A DNA stretch of 27,349 nt from a virus (lineage: Duplodnaviria > Caudoviricetes), in IMG/VR virus record IMGVR_UViG_3300033417_000044, positions 1 to 27,349 of that record; one strand, written 5' to 3'. Below are positions 14,354 through 25,417 of this stretch, piece by piece. Within the stretch, counting starts at the first letter, position 1. Every line of letters starts with the position of its first letter. The position numbers and the translations under genes are program-made. The notes under the pieces are model-generated. The model saw nothing but the letters and a program-made list of their open reading frames with translations. It was not told where the DNA came from and made no database searches.

Positions 14354-14548
14354 ATGAGCGCGCTCCGCTACCTGCCGCTGTATGTGCCGCAAGCGGCGGC
14401 TGGTGGCATCCCTCCGTCTGTCGCGCTCTACCACCACCGGCACCACAACCTGGCAGCCTGTGTTTTCGTACTGGTCGGCACAATGTTGGCCGCTGGCGCG
14501 CTAATCATCATGTTGTTCGGCCCGGACTGGCTCAAATTGGCGGCGTGA
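14354..14548 (+). CDS. Small membrane protein
   Basis: His-rich YHHRHHN followed by one TM helix. Confidence 0.55.
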   Translation: MSALRYLPLYVPQAAAGGIPPSVALYHHRHHNLAACVFVLVGTMLAAGALIIMLFGPDWLKLAA

Positions 14549-15540
14549 TGAAGGTCGCCCACATAGCCGTGGTTACGCCCGGCAGGTGCGGTCTTTTCGA
14601 GACGGCGCGCGAGCTGGTGGTCGCCTTGCGCCGGCAGGATGTGGATTCGCGGCTGGTCGATCCGACGCGCGAGACCAACAAGCTCTATCCCGAGGGCACA
14701 GAGGATCGCGGCGCACCGCTCGCGGATATGGGCTGGGGACTGAAGGCCGATGTGCTCGTGAACCACTCGGGGTACGACAACACGCCGCTCGGAGACACGG
14801 AACAGCCCGTGGTCCACATCGCCCACGGTCGGCCACGATCGAGCTTCCTGAGCGAGATGAAAGGCTCTACGCCGATCTACTCATACCACTATTCCAAGAA
14901 CAAAGACCCGCGTTTCAAGGCGGTGGTGACGTTCTGGCCGCAGCATCAGCCGTATCTCGAAGTGATGTTCCCGGACAAGCCGATCCACGTTGTGCAAGCG
15001 TGCGTCGATCTGGAGGCATGGACGCCGAACGGGCCGAGCGGGTACAAGTTCCACGGCCACAAGGGGAAGATCAACGTCGTCTGCACCGATGCGTTCCGCG
15101 ATGACATTGACCCGTTCGTGCCGATCAACGCTTTCGCGCTGTGGGCGCGACAAACGCCCGGCGAGGCCAAGCTGCATGTCTATGCCAAGCCAGCGAACGT
15201 AAAAGGGTGGGGGCCGTTGCTGAGGCGGATTAAAGATGACGGCAATCTCGGCGAGGTCGCCGGCTGGGTTAAGGGATTGGAGAACGTCTACCGCGCCGCG
15301 ACGTTCATGATTACGGCGCATGAGATCGACACCAGGAGCGTGCGCGAGGCGATGGCGTGCGGTTGTCCTGTAGCACGGATTCCAGTTCTCGGTGTGCATC
15401 CATACGATGACTACAAAGAGGCGATCTATTGGGGCGTGACTGGTGATAGGGCCGTTGCCAGGAAGCAGGCGGAAGATAATTTCGGGATGCAGAAAACCGG
15501 CGAGCAGTTCAAGGCCGTGCTTGAGGGGGCGCTATCGTGA
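14545..15540 (+). CDS. Glycosyltransferase, GT-B fold (GT4-like)
   Basis: MKVAHI N-terminal strand and EX7E motif EIDTRSVREAMACGCPV. Start is GTG 14545 or ATG 14548. Confidence 0.85.
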   Translation: MMKVAHIAVVTPGRCGLFETARELVVALRRQDVDSRLVDPTRETNKLYPEGTEDRGAPLADMGWGLKADVLVNHSGYDNTPLGDTEQPVVHIAHGRPRSSFLSEMKGSTPIYSYHYSKNKDPRFKAVVTFWPQHQPYLEVMFPDKPIHVVQACVDLEAWTPNGPSGYKFHGHKGKINVVCTDAFRDDIDPFVPINAFALWARQTPGEAKLHVYAKPANVKGWGPLLRRIKDDGNLGEVAGWVKGLENVYRAATFMITAHEIDTRSVREAMACGCPVARIPVLGVHPYDDYKEAIYWGVTGDRAVARKQAEDNFGMQKTGEQFKAVLEGALS

Positions 15541-17477
15541 CGCAAATCCTGAGACAATCGACAGCCGTTGACGTGCTGGCTGGCCCGTTCCTTGACAGCA
15601 CCGATGGCTTCACCGCCGAGGTCGGAGTATCCCCTGCGGTCAAGCTGTCGAAGAACGGGCAGGGGCTCGCCGCCAAGACCGACATAACGACGCCGGTCCA
15701 TGACGCGGACGGCTACTACAACTGCGAGCTTGACGCGACCGACACCAACACGGTCGGGACGCTGGTGCTCACGGTCGTCGGCAGCTCGACCTCGCTACCC
15801 GTGCGGCACGAATTTATGGTTGTCGAGGAAGCTGTTTATGATGCCTTCTTTGCATCGACGGCCGACCTGCATACGGCATCCATTTCTGACATCGAATCCT
15901 CGCTGGTCATCGTCAAGTCGGACTTAGTGGTGATCGACGACTTCGTGGATAACGAGGTTTCCGATATCAAGTCGCAGCTCGTCGTGGTGGCGTCCGATCT
16001 GCTCCAGGTTTACTCCGATACGACGATCATCGCGTCGGACGTGGTGCAGGTCTACAGCGACACGACGATCCTCACATCGCAGACCGTGATCGTGAAATCG
16101 GACACCAGCGACATCAGGTCGCATCTGGTGGTCATCGCCTCTGACGTTGTGCAAATCTACTCGGATACCACGCACATCGACAGCGACGTGACGCTGGCGG
16201 AGTCCCGCCTGCTGGTCGTGAAATCAGACACGAGTGATATTCAGAGCCACTTGACGAAGGTCTATAGCGACACGACCAGCATCGAGGCCGATCTTGCCGA
16301 GGCCGATACGAGCGACATCCACAGCCTTTTGACGCTGGTCCGCAGCGACACGACAAGGATTGAGCTTGCATTGGTGACAGCCACCGGCGCGCTAGAGGAT
16401 GTGCCGACAACGACGGTCTTGCAGACCAATCTCGCCGAGGCGACGGACAATCATTACAACAACATGGTTTTCGTCATGACCAGTGGCGACGAAGCCGGCG
16501 AGGCGCGGCGCATCCTCGATTACACAGGATTAACCGGGACGATCACGCTCGAAACTGCATTGTCCGGCGCACCGTCCGCCGCCGAGACGTTCGCCATTCT
16601 CAACATCCCGTTGATTGGCGAAGCATCAGAGTGGGATACCGTCGTCAGTGACGTGGCGGCAATCGAGGTCGGCGTCAGCGATACCGAGAGCGCCTTGGTG
16701 GTCATCAAGTCTGATTTGGCCCAGGTCTATAGCGACACCACGATTATCTATTCGGATACGACTCACATCAACAGCGACACGACGCATATTGAGTCGGATG
16801 CTGCCGCAATCGAAGTGGGCGTGAGCGACACGGAAAGCGCGCTGGTCGTGATTAAATCCGATTTGGCGCAGGTGTATTCGGACACCACCGTCATTGCCTC
16901 TGACGTGGTACTAATCTACTCGGATACGACCGCGATCGAGGCCGCCGGCGCGGCTCTGACTGCTGCCCAGGATAGCAAGCTCACGCAAGTTCATTCCGAC
17001 GTGATTGTGGTCGGCTCGCAAGTGCTGATCGTGAAGTCGGATACGTCCGATGTTAAGAGTTCGCTGGTCAGGGTGTATAGCGACACCACGAAGATCGAGT
17101 CCGACACTGCCGCTATCGAGATCGGGGTATCAGACACCGAGAGCAGCTTGGTGATCGTGCGCTCCGACCTGCTGCAAGTGTATTCCGACACGACGATCCT
17201 GGTTCCCGCCGTCTCGGATGTCGAGAGCAGCCTGGTCATCATCAAGTCCGATCTGATTGTGATCGACGCCATCCCGACCACGGCGCTCACCGAATCCTAT
17301 GCGGTGAACGGAGCTGCGCCGACCCGCGACCAGGCGTTGATGGCGATACACCAAATGCTGATGGACTTCGCGATCTCCGGTACGTCCGTCACGGTCAAGA
17401 AGCTCGACGACGCGACAACGGCCTTCGTCGTGACGCTGGACGACGACACGAATCCGACTAGCGCCGCGAGAACTTAA
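15537..17477 (+). CDS. Fibre-like virion protein with xxSDxxx heptad repeats
   Basis: Globular N-terminal and central domains, each followed by a long V/I-x-S-D-T-x-x heptad array. GTGA coupling to the GT gene. Confidence 0.8.
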   Translation: MTQILRQSTAVDVLAGPFLDSTDGFTAEVGVSPAVKLSKNGQGLAAKTDITTPVHDADGYYNCELDATDTNTVGTLVLTVVGSSTSLPVRHEFMVVEEAVYDAFFASTADLHTASISDIESSLVIVKSDLVVIDDFVDNEVSDIKSQLVVVASDLLQVYSDTTIIASDVVQVYSDTTILTSQTVIVKSDTSDIRSHLVVIASDVVQIYSDTTHIDSDVTLAESRLLVVKSDTSDIQSHLTKVYSDTTSIEADLAEADTSDIHSLLTLVRSDTTRIELALVTATGALEDVPTTTVLQTNLAEATDNHYNNMVFVMTSGDEAGEARRILDYTGLTGTITLETALSGAPSAAETFAILNIPLIGEASEWDTVVSDVAAIEVGVSDTESALVVIKSDLAQVYSDTTIIYSDTTHINSDTTHIESDAAAIEVGVSDTESALVVIKSDLAQVYSDTTVIASDVVLIYSDTTAIEAAGAALTAAQDSKLTQVHSDVIVVGSQVLIVKSDTSDVKSSLVRVYSDTTKIESDTAAIEIGVSDTESSLVIVRSDLLQVYSDTTILVPAVSDVESSLVIIKSDLIVIDAIPTTALTESYAVNGAAPTRDQALMAIHQMLMDFAISGTSVTVKKLDDATTAFVVTLDDDTNPTSAART

Positions 17478-18423: not shown

Positions 18424-18792
18424 ATGGTCGTCCCGACCCCGCCCACCGTTGCCGAGATCGACCGCCAGATCGCCGACCTCGCACCCGATATCCATCGGGG
18501 CGCCGAGGCCAAGCGGTTTCTGGAGCATCCGCTGTTGCGGGATGCGCTCGCACGCATCGAACGCGGCATCCATACGAGCTTCGAGGAAGTCGCCACGGGG
18601 CCGCCCGGCCCTGAGCAGGCCGAGCGCTACCAGATGCTCGGCATGAAGCTCCGGGTGCTCAACGACTTCAAGACGGTGTTCAACGCTGTGGTGCAGACCG
18701 GGGCGATGGCCGAGGCAGACAGCGCCAATCTCGAAAGCCAGCGGATGTATTCGCGGGAGTTCGAGCATCCGGTTTTCGCGGAGGCCGAGTGA
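18424..18792 (+). CDS. Helical phage protein of the type found between portal and scaffold
   Basis: RGAEAKRFLEHPLL motif and gene position. Confidence 0.75.
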   Translation: MVVPTPPTVAEIDRQIADLAPDIHRGAEAKRFLEHPLLRDALARIERGIHTSFEEVATGPPGPEQAERYQMLGMKLRVLNDFKTVFNAVVQTGAMAEADSANLESQRMYSREFEHPVFAEAE

Positions 18793-19574
18793 TGCCTGGC
18801 GCACCGCCTTCTGGACAAGGCACGGCCCCCAAGAGAGTCTGGCTGGCAAGCGAAGGTCGCTACGTGCTTGTGGGCAGCCCGGAGCATTTGGCCTCTCTTC
18901 AGCGGTCGAACGTCCCACCGGGGACGCCTCCCGCCAGTTCGATACCGGCAGCCGGTTCACAACCGCCGCCCGTAGCCGCGCCGTCATCCATGCCGACCGG
19001 CCCTGCCCCCGCGCAAGGGACTATGGATTTTCACGCCTTTCAAGCGGCACAGGGCAGCGCCAACGACATCGCTGCGCTCAAGACCTATCTGGACTTGGGC
19101 AACCAGAACGCGACGGCCTCGATCGAGAAATACGGCATCGGCAATCTGTTTGATCTGCCTTCGGGTAGCCCGCAGCCGCCACCAGCCGATCCCGCCGTGC
19201 CACCGCCTCCCGGCTCTACGTTGGGACCGCCACCTACGGGGACGGGACCGCCGATCCTGAATCCCAATCCACCGCCGCTGCTCAATCCTGAGACGCCGGC
19301 GCGGATGTTCGGGCAAGCGACACCCTATCCCCAACTCGGAGGGATGTTCGCGCCGCGGCCGTGGCAGCAGGCGGCCATGTTTCCGCCGGCCCAAGCTCCG
19401 GCCCAGCCGCCAGGACAGCCCCCTGCTCAGCCGCCAGGACAGCCGGCCCAGGGGCAACCGCCAATGGGTCTGCCCTGGCAGATGCAGCAACCGGAGATAC
19501 CGGAGTTCCTGAAGAAGCGGCTGGCTGCGGCGCAAGCCTTTCAGCTCGGCCCGTCGATGCTTTTCGGAGGTTGA
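18789..19574 (+). CDS. Pro/Gln-rich low-complexity protein
   Basis: GGAGG RBS and QPPGQPPAQPPGQ repeats. Coupled start. Confidence 0.7.
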   Translation: MMPGAPPSGQGTAPKRVWLASEGRYVLVGSPEHLASLQRSNVPPGTPPASSIPAAGSQPPPVAAPSSMPTGPAPAQGTMDFHAFQAAQGSANDIAALKTYLDLGNQNATASIEKYGIGNLFDLPSGSPQPPPADPAVPPPPGSTLGPPPTGTGPPILNPNPPPLLNPETPARMFGQATPYPQLGGMFAPRPWQQAAMFPPAQAPAQPPGQPPAQPPGQPAQGQPPMGLPWQMQQPEIPEFLKKRLAAAQAFQLGPSMLFGG

Positions 19575-19577
19575 GAC

Positions 19578-20090
19578 ATGGCTTTCGGTGGACCGACCGG
19601 CGCGTTGTTCGGGGGCATGCCCGGGGGCGGGCAGATGGACCCGAGGATGATTGCTGCGCTGATGCAGCGGGCTGGGATGTCTGGCCAGATGCCCGGCCCG
19701 CAGAGCGGTGGGATGCCGCTCGCCGGCGCGCCGATGATGGGCGGGGGGATGCCCGGAATGATGCCGCCCGGCATGGGCGCCGGCGGGCCTCCAGGAATGG
19801 GCGGCGGTGGCCCTCCTGGCATGCCAGCCGGGATGCCGCCGGGTATGGGCGGTGGGATGCCGCCCGGCATGGGACCGCCCGGCATGGGGATGCCCGGCGT
19901 ACCGCCGGGGACCAATCCGCAGCCCACCCAGGCGACACCGCCGATCCAGCAGCCGATGCCCAATCAGCAGGCGTTCGGCAACGCCAATCCGTTTGCGCGC
20001 TTCCAGCGTCCGGGGGGCGCCTTCGGGCGGCCCTTGTCGATGATGAGCGCGACGACACCACAGTTGCCATGGAGACGATATGGCGCTTGA
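19578..20090 (+). CDS. Gly/Met/Pro-rich low-complexity protein
   Basis: GGAGG RBS and GMPPGMG repeats. Confidence 0.7.
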   Translation: MAFGGPTGALFGGMPGGGQMDPRMIAALMQRAGMSGQMPGPQSGGMPLAGAPMMGGGMPGMMPPGMGAGGPPGMGGGGPPGMPAGMPPGMGGGMPPGMGPPGMGMPGVPPGTNPQPTQATPPIQQPMPNQQAFGNANPFARFQRPGGAFGRPLSMMSATTPQLPWRRYGA

Positions 20091-21171: not shown

Positions 21172-21318
21172 ATGGCCCAACCGTCACCGGCACCGTTCAG
21201 CACCTACGACGCGATTGGTAATCGCGAGCACCTGGAGAATGTCATCTACATGATTTCTCCGCACGACACGCCTTTCTACTCGGCGATCCCGAGGTCGAAG
21301 GCGACGGCCACGCTGCAT
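21172..21318 (+). CDS. Major capsid protein, exon 1 (49 aa; missing from ORF track)
   Basis: AGGAGG RBS. MAQPSPAPFSTYDAIGNREHLENVIYMISPHDTPFYSAIPRSKATATLH matches the DUF5309/SU10-type capsid N-terminus as recalled. TTG TAG follows if unspliced. Confidence 0.9.
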
Positions 21319-22322
21319 TTGTAGACCACTTGTGCAGATAAAACGTAGCTATATGACGGGGATAGCCTGAGAGTTCCATGACCCACAGCGGAAAATACAT
21401 GGAAATTGGCCAATCCGCAGCTAAGAGCTACGCTTACTTGTTGGGCGTATTTCTTGGAGATGGGAGCGTGTCGCGCGGGCGATATGCTCAAAGCACCATC
21501 GACAAGGATTTCGCCGATGCCGTTGTGGCAGCGTTCGCAGATTTGAGCGACTGCCGCGTATGCGTCTCGTATCAGGAAAAGCCCAAGAAAGACAGGCCGG
21601 CAAGTCCGATCTGGAATGTCAGTTGCGGCGACAAGGCGCTTGCAGAGCGTTTGGTCGCTGACACAAAGGGCAAAACCATAATTCCTGATTATGTGCACGC
21701 ATGGGATGACGAATTGCGGAAGCAGTTCGTTATCGGCCTAATGGATAGCGAAGGGTTTGTCGCGGCCAACGGTAATGGCCGTGGTTACAACTGGAAACGT
21801 ACAAACCGCGCCTATTACATGGGCTATAAATCGTGCGATATATGGGTTCCTGATCTAATCAGGATCATGGAGGGCGTCGGCCTGCGGATTGGCAAAATCT
21901 CGCAGGAACAACCTCGGAAGCCCGGATATAAAACGCCGACCAGATTCCACATCAAAATGCAGTCGTGGATTAATGCTGGGATGCGTTTCAATATCGCACG
22001 TAAGCAGGACCGCGTAGATCAATGGGCAGCCATTGGTCCTTACGAAAGGCGTGCCTTGCATCCGCGTGGTGGTCCGCAGCGGTTTTGTGCTGTGCCATTA
22101 TGCGGCCACAAGCATCTCGCCAAGGGTCTTTGCAACCGGCATTACAAGCAAGCGCAGGCTAAGCTCAGAGACTTGTACGCTACGCATGGTGTTTACCATG
22201 ATGAGCCAGTCCGATCTCAGACCGAAAGGCTGAGAGTAGCATGGAAACATGCTGCCGCCGCAGTGATGCGGTCAGTAGCGGCTTCAATCGCTTTGATTGT
22301 TGCCGTGAATGTAACAGAAATC
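21319..22322 (+). mobile_element. Group I intron in the major capsid gene
   Basis: P1 CUGCAU/GUGCAG with U-G at the 5' splice site. P10 CCACUU/GAGUGG. P3 CGUAGC (21344-21349)/GCUACG (22179-22184). Q element AAUCCGCAG, R element CUCAGAGACU, P8 hairpin 22185-22200, S element ...CAGUCC, and three GNRA-capped P9 hairpins. 3' boundary is 22322 or 22323. Confidence 0.92.
21378..22322 (+). CDS. Intron-encoded LAGLIDADG homing endonuclease, open in frame into capsid exon 2
   Basis: Two motifs, YLLGVFLGDG and FVIGLMDSEG, and a C-terminal CAVPLC...GLCNRHY motif. Lies mostly in the P6 loop. Start is 21378 or 21399. Confidence 0.88.
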
Positions 22323-23120
22323 GAGTGGCAAATCGACGCACTCGCTGCCGCGGCGCAGAACCGTGTGATCGAAGGCGACGACGCGACCACGGATGTTGGC
22401 ACGGCAACGACTCGCCGTGGCAACTACACGCAGATCAGCGACAAGGTGCCGCGCGTCACCGGCACCCAGGAGGTCGTGTCGAAGGCCGGCCGGCGCTCGG
22501 AAATGGCGCATCAGATCATGAAGCGCAGCTTCGAGCTCAAGACCGACATCGAGAACGACCTGTGCGCCAACGCAAGTCGCGCCGCGGGCAGCGATTCAGT
22601 CGCCCGAGGCTCGGCTGGCCTGGTGTCATGGATCGCGACCAACGAGAGTGTCGGCACCGGTGGCTCTGCGCCGACCGGCGACGGCACCAATACCCGCACG
22701 GCCGGCACTGCCCGCACGTTCGAGGAGTCGATGATGCTGAGCGTATCTCAGCAAATCTTCGTCGCGGGCGGCAACCCCGACTGCATCATGCTCGGGGCGT
22801 TCAACAAGCGGCGTTTCTCGACGTTCCAGGGCAACGCCACCCGCAACGTCGGCGCGGCCGATCGGAAGCTGTTCAGCGCAATTGACGTTTACGAGACCGA
22901 CTTCGGCGACATCGAGGTCGTCGTGAACCGCTTCCAGCCTGCGGGTGTCGCGCTGATCCTCGAAAAGAAGATGTGGGCGTTCGCATCCTTGCGGCCGTTC
23001 CGGCTCGTTGATCTCGCTAAAGACGGCGACAGCGATCGCAAGCAACTTTTGATCGAGTTTACCTTGGAGGCTCGGAATCAGGCCGCGTCGGGGATCGTCG
23101 CCGATCTTTCGACGGCTTAG
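22323..23120 (+). CDS. Major capsid protein, exon 2 (265 aa; spliced product 314 aa)
   Basis: EWQIDAL...EGDDA, NYTQI, ELKTDIE, YETDFG and LAKDGDS motifs. Joining restores TLH-EWQ. Confidence 0.92.
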   Translation, partial: EWQIDALAAAAQNRVIEGDDATTDVGTATTRRGNYTQISDKVPRVTGTQEVVSKAGRRSEMAHQIMKRSFELKTDIENDLCANASRAAGSDSVARGSAGLVSWIATNESVGTGGSAPTGDGTNTRTAGTARTFEESMMLSVSQQIFVAGGNPDCIMLGAFNKRRFSTFQGNATRNVGAADRKLFSAIDVYETDFGDIEVVVNRFQPAGVALILEKKMWAFASLRPFRLVDLAKDGDSDRKQLLIEFTLEARNQAASGIVADLSTA

Positions 23121-23135: not shown

Positions 23136-23729
23136 ATGAAGAAGTTCCTCATCGGCCTCTTGGCGGTTACGGCGCTGGCCCTGCTTGCGGGGCCGGCGTC
23201 CGCCGCCAAGCTGCTGCGCCAAAACAACGACGGCACTGCGTCCTGGTGCGACAACGTGAGCGGCGAGTGCGTGCCTACGGGCGAGCACACGTTCACGGTG
23301 ACGATCTCCGATATCGCCACGGCCGCGACGCAATACGTGACCATCCCGTTCGCGGGGCGGGTCAAGAGCTACAGCGTGACGGTCGGTGGTCAAATCCTGA
23401 CCGCGACCGAGGTTATCACGTTCTACATCGCCGAGATGGCGAGCAGCGGATGCGTGTTGCAGCTCGGCTGCGGCGCTACCACCCAACAGTTCACGCCGAT
23501 CACGCCGGTTATCGCCCAAGCGGCAACGGGTCTGTACGAGCTTCAGCTCGGTATCGCCTACGCCGTGACCGGACAGCGGTCGCATGTGGACATCCCATAC
23601 AGCAGCGCCAACACGTCGCCGACCTTCGGCGCGAACGCTGTGATCGCGATCAACAACGACGGCGGCTCCACTATCGCCGGTCCGAACGACTGGGAAGATG
23701 AAGCCGTCGTAACGATCATCGTCCATTGA
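23136..23729 (+). CDS. Head decoration-like protein with N-terminal Sec signal peptide
   Basis: GGGAGG RBS. MKKFLIGLLAVTALALLAGPASA signal. TISDIATAATQYVTIPFAGRV resembles post-capsid decoration proteins (from recall). Confidence 0.7.
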   Translation: MKKFLIGLLAVTALALLAGPASAAKLLRQNNDGTASWCDNVSGECVPTGEHTFTVTISDIATAATQYVTIPFAGRVKSYSVTVGGQILTATEVITFYIAEMASSGCVLQLGCGATTQQFTPITPVIAQAATGLYELQLGIAYAVTGQRSHVDIPYSSANTSPTFGANAVIAINNDGGSTIAGPNDWEDEAVVTIIVH

Positions 23730-25417
23730 CGAAGGTCATACCATACCTCGCCTGGTGGGGCGGCGGCACACTCCTCGCCGCCGCCCTACTGGCATTTGAT
23801 CCCAACATCTCGGCGATGGCGCCGCGGTGGCTGGCCGTATTCGGCCTTGCCTTGGCAGCCCTCGCCGCATTGGCGATCACCGGCCGGCCGAGGCTCGGCT
23901 GGATCGAGATTGCCGCAGTGGCGTTCCTTGGCTGGGCGGCCCTGTCCATTGCGTGGTCCGGCGACTGGCGGGCCGGCATCTTCCAGTGGCAGAATATGGC
24001 GTGCCTGTTCGCCATCGCGCTGATGGTGAAGCACTGCCCGGCGTTCGACCGCGTGTTCTACCGGGCGGTCATGATCGGGGCGGTCGGGCTTCTCGCGCTC
24101 GCCTGGTGGAGGCCGGACTGGCACGCCGGGGTCGGCAACCCGAACTTCCTGGCCGAGCTTCTGGTCCTGCTGTTCGCATTCCTGGTGTTCATGCCGGCGC
24201 ATGACACGTCCAGGCTGATGCACTGGCTGCTGGTCCCGATCCTGCCGGCCATCGCGCTGTACCTGTTCATCTGGAACCCGTCCAACGTGCAGCACGCGGC
24301 GATCGCGGGCTGGATCGGCATCGGGCTCGTCGGGCTCGCCAAGGCGCGGCAGTGGCGCCTGCTCGGCGTGCTGATCGCGGTTCTTGCGGTAGTCGGTATC
24401 GGTATGTGGCACGCCGGCTGGCTTGGCGATATCGAGACATCGCTGATGCGCCGGGCGGAAATCTGGATCAACACCTTGGCGATGATCGCCGGCCATCCCC
24501 TGTTCGGTGTCGGGCTGGGCTCGTTCGATTACGACTACCCGCGGGCGGCGCACCTCGGCGTCATGGGCGGGACGTTTCTCGAAAACCCGACCGATTTCAT
24601 GGGCGCGGTCCACAACGAGTATCTTCAGCTCATCGTCGAGCTGGGCCTTGTCGGGGCAGCGCTGGCCGGGCTGGTGGGCTGGCTGTGCGCCCGCGCCCGC
24701 TGGACGGTGTGGAAGCCGCGCGCCTGCGGGGCCGGCGTACTGCTGACGGCAGCCGCCATCGCCCTGTTTGGCTTCCCGGCGCAGAACCCATCGACCGGCG
24801 TTCTCATAGCGATTGCCGCCGGCCTGTTCGCCCGCGGCCTGGATGCCAGGGTGGCAGTCCCGTTCGCGAACCTCGCCGGGCTCGGCTTGGTGCCGCTGGC
24901 CGTGAGCATGTACCTGTTCGCGATCAGCTCGGTGCAGACGGCGCTCGTGCCGCGATGGATTCCGGTCGAGCCGGTCATCGCCCTCCAAGCGAACCTCGAC
25001 GCAATCAGGACGTACCCATTCCCGGTCTGGCCGCGGTTGCAGGCCGTGCTCTCGCTCCGCTCGGTCATCGCGCGGCATGGCGACCGGGTACGGCTACAAC
25101 CGGATGCGGCCGACCGGATTCATTGGTGGGGCATGACCGCCGGGCCGAACCATCCCGGCATCCTGATCTCGCGGGTCGAGTATCTGCTGGCCTACGACCG
25201 CTGGATGGCTGATGGCGAGATCGAGCAGTTGTTCGACAAGCTGCACAAGGTGGCGCCGATGTACGCGCACGGCTACGCGCTCGAAAGCGTGTACGCCGGG
25301 CTGATCAACGACGAGGAACGGATCAAGAGGTCGGTCCTTGCCGCAGTCGCGCTGCCCGGCGGGCTGGGCATCTTCCAGCAAATGGGGCTGCTAAGGACAA
25401 CGGAGACAGCACAATGA
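23726..25417 (+). CDS. O-antigen ligase / O-oligosaccharyltransferase family (Wzy_C) membrane protein
   Basis: Many TM helices. GNPNFLA, RAEIW...HPLFGVGLGSF and HNEYLQLIVELGLVG motifs. Soluble helical C-terminus. Confidence 0.9.
   Translation: MTKVIPYLAWWGGGTLLAAALLAFDPNISAMAPRWLAVFGLALAALAALAITGRPRLGWIEIAAVAFLGWAALSIAWSGDWRAGIFQWQNMACLFAIALMVKHCPAFDRVFYRAVMIGAVGLLALAWWRPDWHAGVGNPNFLAELLVLLFAFLVFMPAHDTSRLMHWLLVPILPAIALYLFIWNPSNVQHAAIAGWIGIGLVGLAKARQWRLLGVLIAVLAVVGIGMWHAGWLGDIETSLMRRAEIWINTLAMIAGHPLFGVGLGSFDYDYPRAAHLGVMGGTFLENPTDFMGAVHNEYLQLIVELGLVGAALAGLVGWLCARARWTVWKPRACGAGVLLTAAAIALFGFPAQNPSTGVLIAIAAGLFARGLDARVAVPFANLAGLGLVPLAVSMYLFAISSVQTALVPRWIPVEPVIALQANLDAIRTYPFPVWPRLQAVLSLRSVIARHGDRVRLQPDAADRIHWWGMTAGPNHPGILISRVEYLLAYDRWMADGEIEQLFDKLHKVAPMYAHGYALESVYAGLINDEERIKRSVLAAVALPGGLGIFQQMGLLRTTETAQ

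Follow-up and report, generated by a model that had tools for sequence, protein, structure and literature searches.

The DNA analyzed here (the window, 27,349 nucleotides in full) is a linear fragment of an uncultured soil phage and is 38% complete. Its head genes, as identified by a Pfam search, encode a small and a large terminase, a portal protein, and a major capsid protein, the last two of SU10 type. The major capsid gene, on the plus strand, is split between a His codon and a Glu codon by an intron. Exon 1 (21172 to 21318) has 49 codons, of which the last is the His codon ending in the 5' splice-site base U21318; exon 2 (22323 to 23120) has 265 codons, begins with the Glu codon, and is open to its stop. 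The translated exons matched PF17236 (SU10-type major capsid, SU10_MCP) above the cut-off and colinearly, exon 1 at model positions 4–43 (E 4e-7) and exon 2 at positions 38–291 (E 8e-77). In this record, itself a fragment, the Pfam search returned no second SU10 capsid match.

Other open reading frames (ORFs) of the window were also noted. A 646-aa ORF (15537–17477) carries many imperfect D/S/V-rich repeats, and low-complexity Gly/Pro/Met-rich ORFs (19578–20090 and 18789–19574) lie upstream of a likely scaffold gene. Among the virion genes are a 563-aa ORF (23726–25417), which we take to be a membrane protein, and a 331-aa ORF (14545–15540), presumably glycosyltransferase-like.

The intron is a group I intron of 1,004 nt, from 21319 to a predicted end at C22322 on the plus strand. 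Its helices were assigned by inspection and by alignment with 35 relatives, and its boundaries were set from intronless capsid genes. The fold of 21313–21337 gave P1 (21313–21318 with 21332–21337) and the P10 guide strand (21326–21331), which co-varies with exon 2 in the relatives. Within the 6-bp P1, U21318 at the end of the His codon pairs with G21332, in keeping with the U-G rule for 5' splice sites of group I introns. The 5' half of the core (21344–21419) was placed by alignment and a weak Rfam Intron_gpI match, and contains the 5' strand of P3 (21344–21349), P4 (21354–21360 with 21414–21419), and P5. The 3' half (22168–22212), placed by alignment and fold, contains P7 (22168–22173 with 22208–22212), the 3' strand of P3 (22179–22184), P8 (22185–22200), and J8/7. 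The P7 pair that binds guanosine, G22170-C22211, is kept, as the earlier note on this DNA had stated. Next comes the 5' strand of P9.0 (22213–22215), in which A22214 pairs with U22321, U22215 pairs with A22320, and G22213 lies opposite C22322. Fold and alignment place a GNRA-capped P9, more 3' hairpins, and a conserved 6-nt motif (22311–22316) in the remaining 22216–22319. The core helices P3, P4, P7, P8, and P9 are all present.

Rfam RF00028 did not match the window at its gathering score; the best hit, 14.8 bits with an E value of 0.63, covered 21354–21493 in the 5' half of the core. This score is low because an ORF splits the core. Relatives lacking the ORF scored 60.6 (L170; cut-off 50), 46.5 (L242), 26.3 (L163), and 25.2 (L172) bits. 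Two bases of J8/7 in the window, 22205–22206, are at odds with the family consensus; here L030, L180, and the window, none of which ends in G, have C in place of an A kept by most relatives. Compensated base-pair changes adjoin the unchanged G-binding pair in P7 of L163, L172, L401, L306, and L173.

A stop codon lies in frame two codons inside the intron, and the junction holds a single G, at 22323. Conceptual splicing that keeps G22323 yields a capsid protein of 314 aa, and loss of G22323 yields a peptide of 63 aa. The sequence H-E-W-Q is unbroken in 26 of 29 capsid loci (another residue precedes E-W-Q in two, and L002 has the intron), so the Glu codon is needed. We therefore agree with the earlier note that the H-E-W-Q frame requires G22323 and leaves an intron ending in C. 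A terminal omega-G is then lacking; because it is near-universal with published exceptions, it was not treated as defining group I introns. When all in-frame combinations of ends 21312–21325 with 22314–22329 were scanned, only two junctions gave H-E-W without gain or loss. A junction after A21317 with the exon starting at C22322 was rejected, since it breaks the U-G rule and the intron would end in U. A 5' cut one base later creates a stop codon, and recoding of that stop was rejected because the gene itself ends in the same TAG codon.

The last base of related introns

The earlier note had offered three ways out of the single G: splicing at an omega-C, a real 1-nt deletion that inactivates the capsid gene, or an assembly error that dropped a G. 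The junction was compared with Logan contigs from two public soil runs, X1 and X2. The X1 contig spans 22254–22404 and the X2 contig 21826–22343; both agree with the window at every letter and have no gap, and the extra G that would mark an ordinary omega-G intron is absent from both. These are low-depth contigs (2.5 and 5) rather than raw reads, one of the runs may be the source of the window, and only the X1 contig bridges the site with at least 31 letters on both sides. A look for RNA runs that carry the sequence listed none, which counts neither for nor against splicing. Against an error, the 580-aa endonuclease-capsid frame of the window is also present in another assembly, on a contig of 29,361 nt, and 12 of the 46 same-site relatives among the matches listed likewise lack the extra G. 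Because two runs show no indel and the relatives share the trait, we reject an assembly or sequencing error, to which we would give hardly any credence, and conclude that the C-ending junction is genuine sequence.

Relatives were collected by protein and pattern scans and filtered for a capsid exon and an intron core; the patterns required a fixed motif, and the result is a sample and not a census. At the His|Glu site, the matches listed comprised 46 distinct relatives, with a separate terminal G in 34, A in 11, and C in one (L308). Including the window, the 47 same-site introns among these matches thus end in G (34), A (11), or C (2). At a second site, 4 nt downstream, 13 of the introns listed end in G and one (L394) in A. 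The absence of a separate omega-G is therefore a family trait, which the earlier note had missed. For L277 (A) and L308 (C), the sequence does not include the 5' end. L161, with Ns near its 5' end, was excluded from the trees and P10 counts, and L419, a G-ending intron whose exon starts with C, lies outside the P9.0 and spacer counts. The bases after P7 of L394 were read by eye; both of its P9.0 pairs form, and it was counted among the 14 non-G introns.

Among the matches listed, the distance from the conserved motif to the exon was 5–6 nt in 46 of 48 G-ending and 13 of 14 non-G introns, and is 6 nt in the window. Because the spacer length is equal, no base is missing; the last base has changed. 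A private deletion is accordingly unlikely. L394 (A) and its sister L414 (G) differ here by a plain G-to-A substitution, with equal length, the same spacer, and the same P9.0. One candidate C-ender, L260, proved to be an ordinary G-ending intron at a site one base upstream, in which the C before the Glu codon is exon.

A protein search listed 27 clusters at 61–72% identity to the window endonuclease, so this lineage is larger than the sampled loci. The endonuclease was found in 0 of 50,697 records of cultured phages. Searching with the intron core DNA returned only a 29-nt exon match, and none of 67 loci from a pattern scan of genome contigs passed the capsid and core filter. The first viral pattern gave mostly intronless genes among the matches listed, and a looser one gave seven introns in at least 120 loci. 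A survey independent of the exons resolved 21 of 117 introns among the matches listed: 15 ended in G, and six non-G calls with weak P10 are likely mis-picks.

Pairing on the two sides of the junction

In 13 of the 14 non-G introns among the matches listed, bases 2 and 3 downstream of P7 form pairs with the two bases that precede the final one. These P9.0 pairs occur in eight base combinations; shuffling, which ignores kinship, gave a mean of 4.0, and 0 of 20,000 shuffles reached 13. Either neighboring register formed in 0 of 14. Both pairs were present in only 11 of 48 listed G-ending introns, and in 31 of those 48 base 2 downstream of P7 is paired to the base that directly precedes omega-G. 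By this register, together with the spacer length, C22322 rather than G22323 falls in the omega slot.

The helix also allows another reading. L163 and L182 have the same P9.0 followed by A, their own omega-G, and a separate exon G, so the family can place omega one base further out. In the window and L308, moreover, P9.0 can reach 3 bp if the terminal C is paired to the first G downstream of P7, and the exon G is then placed as a textbook omega-G. In P0122, the closest relative (80% identical), the spacing is kept and the codons indicate that the outer P9.0 pair has changed in a compensatory way; its last intron base could be G. On these comparisons the P9.0 helix alone does not name omega. 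The earlier note had paired GA 22213–22214 with UC 22321–22322 and taken G22323 as omega-G. That pairing can form (U22215 can also pair with A22320) and can seat G22323, but the register joining 22213 to 22322 is not the sole one, and the family register assigns the omega slot to C22322.

On the exon side, P10 forms at all six positions (21326–21331 with 22323–22328), with G22323 paired to U21331 as first exon base, where the earlier note had placed this helix. The P10 of the window co-varies with its own Glu codon. All 11 non-G introns with a 5' end among the matches listed pair the exon G, and the guide base opposite it is U in 11 of 11, compared with 10 of 21 G-ending introns. Guide pairing favors the in-frame product over the one that has lost G by 3.1–3.8 kcal/mol in these 11 introns and by about 3.4–3.8 kcal/mol in the window. 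The guide base switches together with the intron end in the twins L163 (G) and L172 (A), and again between L160 and L170 (G) and L242 (A). From the P9.0 and guide-base patterns, loss of the terminal G accompanies tighter helices on either side of the bond before G22323. A kinship-aware check had only four independent pairs, none in the opposite direction (sign test p 0.125–0.5).

A quite different scheme would keep G22323 as omega-G and supply the exon with a new G from the GTP cofactor, through guanosine attack at the 3' site and a ligation that loses pyrophosphate, so that the ribozyme would rebuild the Glu codon by insertion. Such a route would reconcile three features, namely the intact G site, P9.0 in its outer register, and a G-U first pair in P10. 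A natural group I intron reportedly carries out a pyrophosphate-releasing ligation (Vicens and Cech are said to have described it in 2009). A G follows all 14 non-G introns among the matches listed, an observation that carries no weight because both surveyed sites begin with G. Two rare side reactions would have to run efficiently for an abundant protein, and published omega-A introns need no such step; we consider this scheme very improbable.

The endonuclease lineage and the state of the capsid gene

An ORF of 580 codons (21378 to 23120, plus strand) encodes a predicted two-motif LAGLIDADG endonuclease with a Cys/His zinc-finger-like tail, and continues in frame across the 3' core and on into exon 2 of the capsid gene. 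The likely start across the family is the ATG at 21399. Both LAGLIDADG motifs are invariant in 20 aligned proteins. The window protein matched Pfam PF14528 with an E value of 7e-4 and 20.2 bits, below the cut-off of 22.5, and most listed homologs carry PF14528. The zinc-finger-like tail (22086–22142 in the window) is also found in L175, L206, L228, L233, and many close proteins, and is absent from the aligned G-ending relatives. A related endonuclease with 36% identity, in L416–L418 (about 198–815 in L416), has no adjoining intron core and is apparently free-standing between head genes.

The frame shared by endonuclease and exon 2, common to the window and P0122, raises the prospect of rescue after splicing: G22323 would leave with the intron, and capsid protein would come from a −1 ribosomal shift at the junction or from the 580-aa endonuclease-capsid read-through. 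No slippery heptamer lies within 30 nt of the junction. The last 150 nt are open in the read-through frame in only two of the 47 same-site introns among the matches listed, the window and the ORF-less L242, so read-through cannot explain the family. The fusion would also lack exon 1, whose 49 residues align with the beginning of the Pfam model. We regard rescue of either kind as highly unlikely.

In the protein tree, the non-G introns that have an intact endonuclease, nine with that of the window, all fall to the same side of one branch (support 91/92, unstarred). The core tree, read without a root, requires at least four changes of end, and a single clade of non-G introns was rejected (AU p 8e-5). 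This conflict points to recombination, reversion, or several origins. Carrier capsid genes differ by up to 43% at non-synonymous sites, and the spread of the intron and its endonuclease over such divergent genes suggests mobility. Second group I introns occur within the same capsid genes in L030, L166, L228, L233, L035, L038, and L431.

In a starred clade of 14 rows, the end is A in seven of seven introns with an intact endonuclease and G in five of seven without one (Fisher p 0.02, kinship ignored). The cost of slower splicing may be offset by homing, or the endonuclease protein may help. The latter idea can be taken further: the LAGLIDADG protein would be a maturase needed for the in-frame second step at a non-G end, and its loss would leave mis-splicing or a regained G. 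Maturases of the LAGLIDADG type have been described for a Thermotoga intron (PMC3984707). On the other hand, L172 and L242 end in A without an ORF, and the same association would also arise if homing did no more than offset slower splicing. Dependence on a maturase is possible but seems to us quite improbable.

The capsid frames next to the non-G introns are either open or interrupted solely at second introns. The capsid dN/dS was 0.06–0.51 in 16 of 21 pairs (0.07 in the closest pair) and saturated in five. As judged from these ratios, the capsid genes of the family are living ones; the ratios are not a measure of the window copy since it gained its C.

That limit bears on the alternative that we take most seriously, although we consider it unlikely: the A-ending relatives work, and the C-ending copy is crippled. 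The change to C would be recent, G22323 would nearly always act as omega-G, and the resulting 63-aa frameshift product would belong to a defective phage or prophage. Several features are compatible with this. The 3-bp P9.0 and intact G site seat G22323 as described; C-enders are rare (two of 14 non-G introns among the matches listed), the second, L308, being unconfirmed without its 5' end; and L260 is a precedent for a C before the Glu codon that is exon. The window branch in the core tree is long (0.44), its J8/7 is off the consensus, and the record is an incomplete fragment. On the other side, the six P10 pairs include co-variation with the Glu codon of the window itself. The terminase and portal genes and both capsid exons are open with Pfam matches, no other SU10 capsid match is present in the fragment, and the identical sequence occurs in two runs.

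Proposed splicing and known introns compared

Splicing at an omega-C was the best supported of the three earlier options. We favor, with fair but far from complete confidence, a reading in which C22322 occupies the omega slot and P9.0 and P10 together fix the cut just before G22323, in a reaction that is probably slow and gives some frameshifted by-product. The first step would follow the usual course, in which free guanosine occupies the intact P7 site and cleaves after U21318. In the second step, as covariation suggests, P9.0 (22214–22215 with 22320–22321) would hold the intron side and the 6-bp P10, stacked on P1, would hold G22323 on the exon side, leaving C22322 alone between two helices as the leaving group. 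This step is probably slower with C than with G, and product lacking G22323 is probably also made. A mixture is likely given the P10 gain for the in-frame product as against G-site binding for its rival. The non-G trait appears to have passed down with a single endonuclease lineage, in which most ends are A, and to have reverted to G on occasion.

Standard teaching holds that group I introns cannot do without a terminal G in their second splicing step. The present family would offer a natural series of G, A, and C ends, with near-twins differing only there and with compensated P9.0 and P10, in an essential and abundant gene where a competing G lies one base away. With such a series and such a competitor, the contributions of G-site binding and of P9.0/P10 pairing to the choice of the 3' site are directly testable. 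The series may also be of use in the design of circular-RNA and trans-splicing ribozymes, and it calls for caution in annotation, since the omega-G rule would mis-call such capsid genes as frameshifted.

Searches of open-access full text returned no natural omega-C intron and no account of this family of capsid introns. The excerpts of PMC4227781, PMC2532722, and PMC1995217 contain nothing on non-G ends.

Among the close systems are the G-ending same-site introns (34 among the matches listed; for example L034, L227, and L002), which share the site, the core, and the endonuclease family at 46–58% identity. They differ from the window intron in having a separate omega-G and, as noted, seldom both P9.0 pairs. 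Among bacterial group I introns, the Coxiella burnetii 23S rRNA intron Cbu.L1917 is said by Raghavan et al. to have an omega-A and to splice more slowly. That Cbu.L1917 is spliced is stated in PMC4990558. As a bacterial group I intron with a reported non-G end, it resembles the window intron; in contrast to the latter, the host is an rRNA, the base is A, and no reading frame is at stake.

Mycobacteriophage LittleE has a spliced intron in its major capsid gene, although that intron ends in G and its ORF is on the opposite strand (excerpts of PMC3706429). The review PMC3984707 gives omega-G as the rule for group I introns. In engineered Tetrahymena constructs, omega A, C, or U supported at least 55% efficiency with no indels (PMC11417360, in part); homology arms had been added, and the base after omega is unstated in section 23 of that source. 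As in our proposal, their 3' site is set by P9.0 and P10 where a G at omega is lacking, and C is tolerated; unlike the window intron, these constructs are artificial, carry homology arms, and sit in no natural gene.

Another natural parallel is the hexacoral mitochondrial ND5-717 group I intron. According to excerpts of PMC6545197 and PMC8146996, it ends in A and its exons are perfectly ligated in vivo, and the ligated ND5 mRNA is over 10-fold less abundant than the mRNA ligated at the G-ending COI intron. Both ND5-717 and the window intron are group I introns in an essential protein gene without omega-G. The A end and an obligatory, giant, back-spliced mitochondrial form are, in those sources, features of ND5-717; the window intron has a C end, an endonuclease ORF, a phage capsid gene as host, a G right after the site, and coexisting relatives that end in G, A, or C. 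Ending in C, it falls outside the omega-A class of ND5-717, to which the ends of 12 relatives among the matches listed (all A) correspond. By comparison of sequences, its C end adds another base to the known non-G exceptions, and the intron likely works like the omega-A introns.
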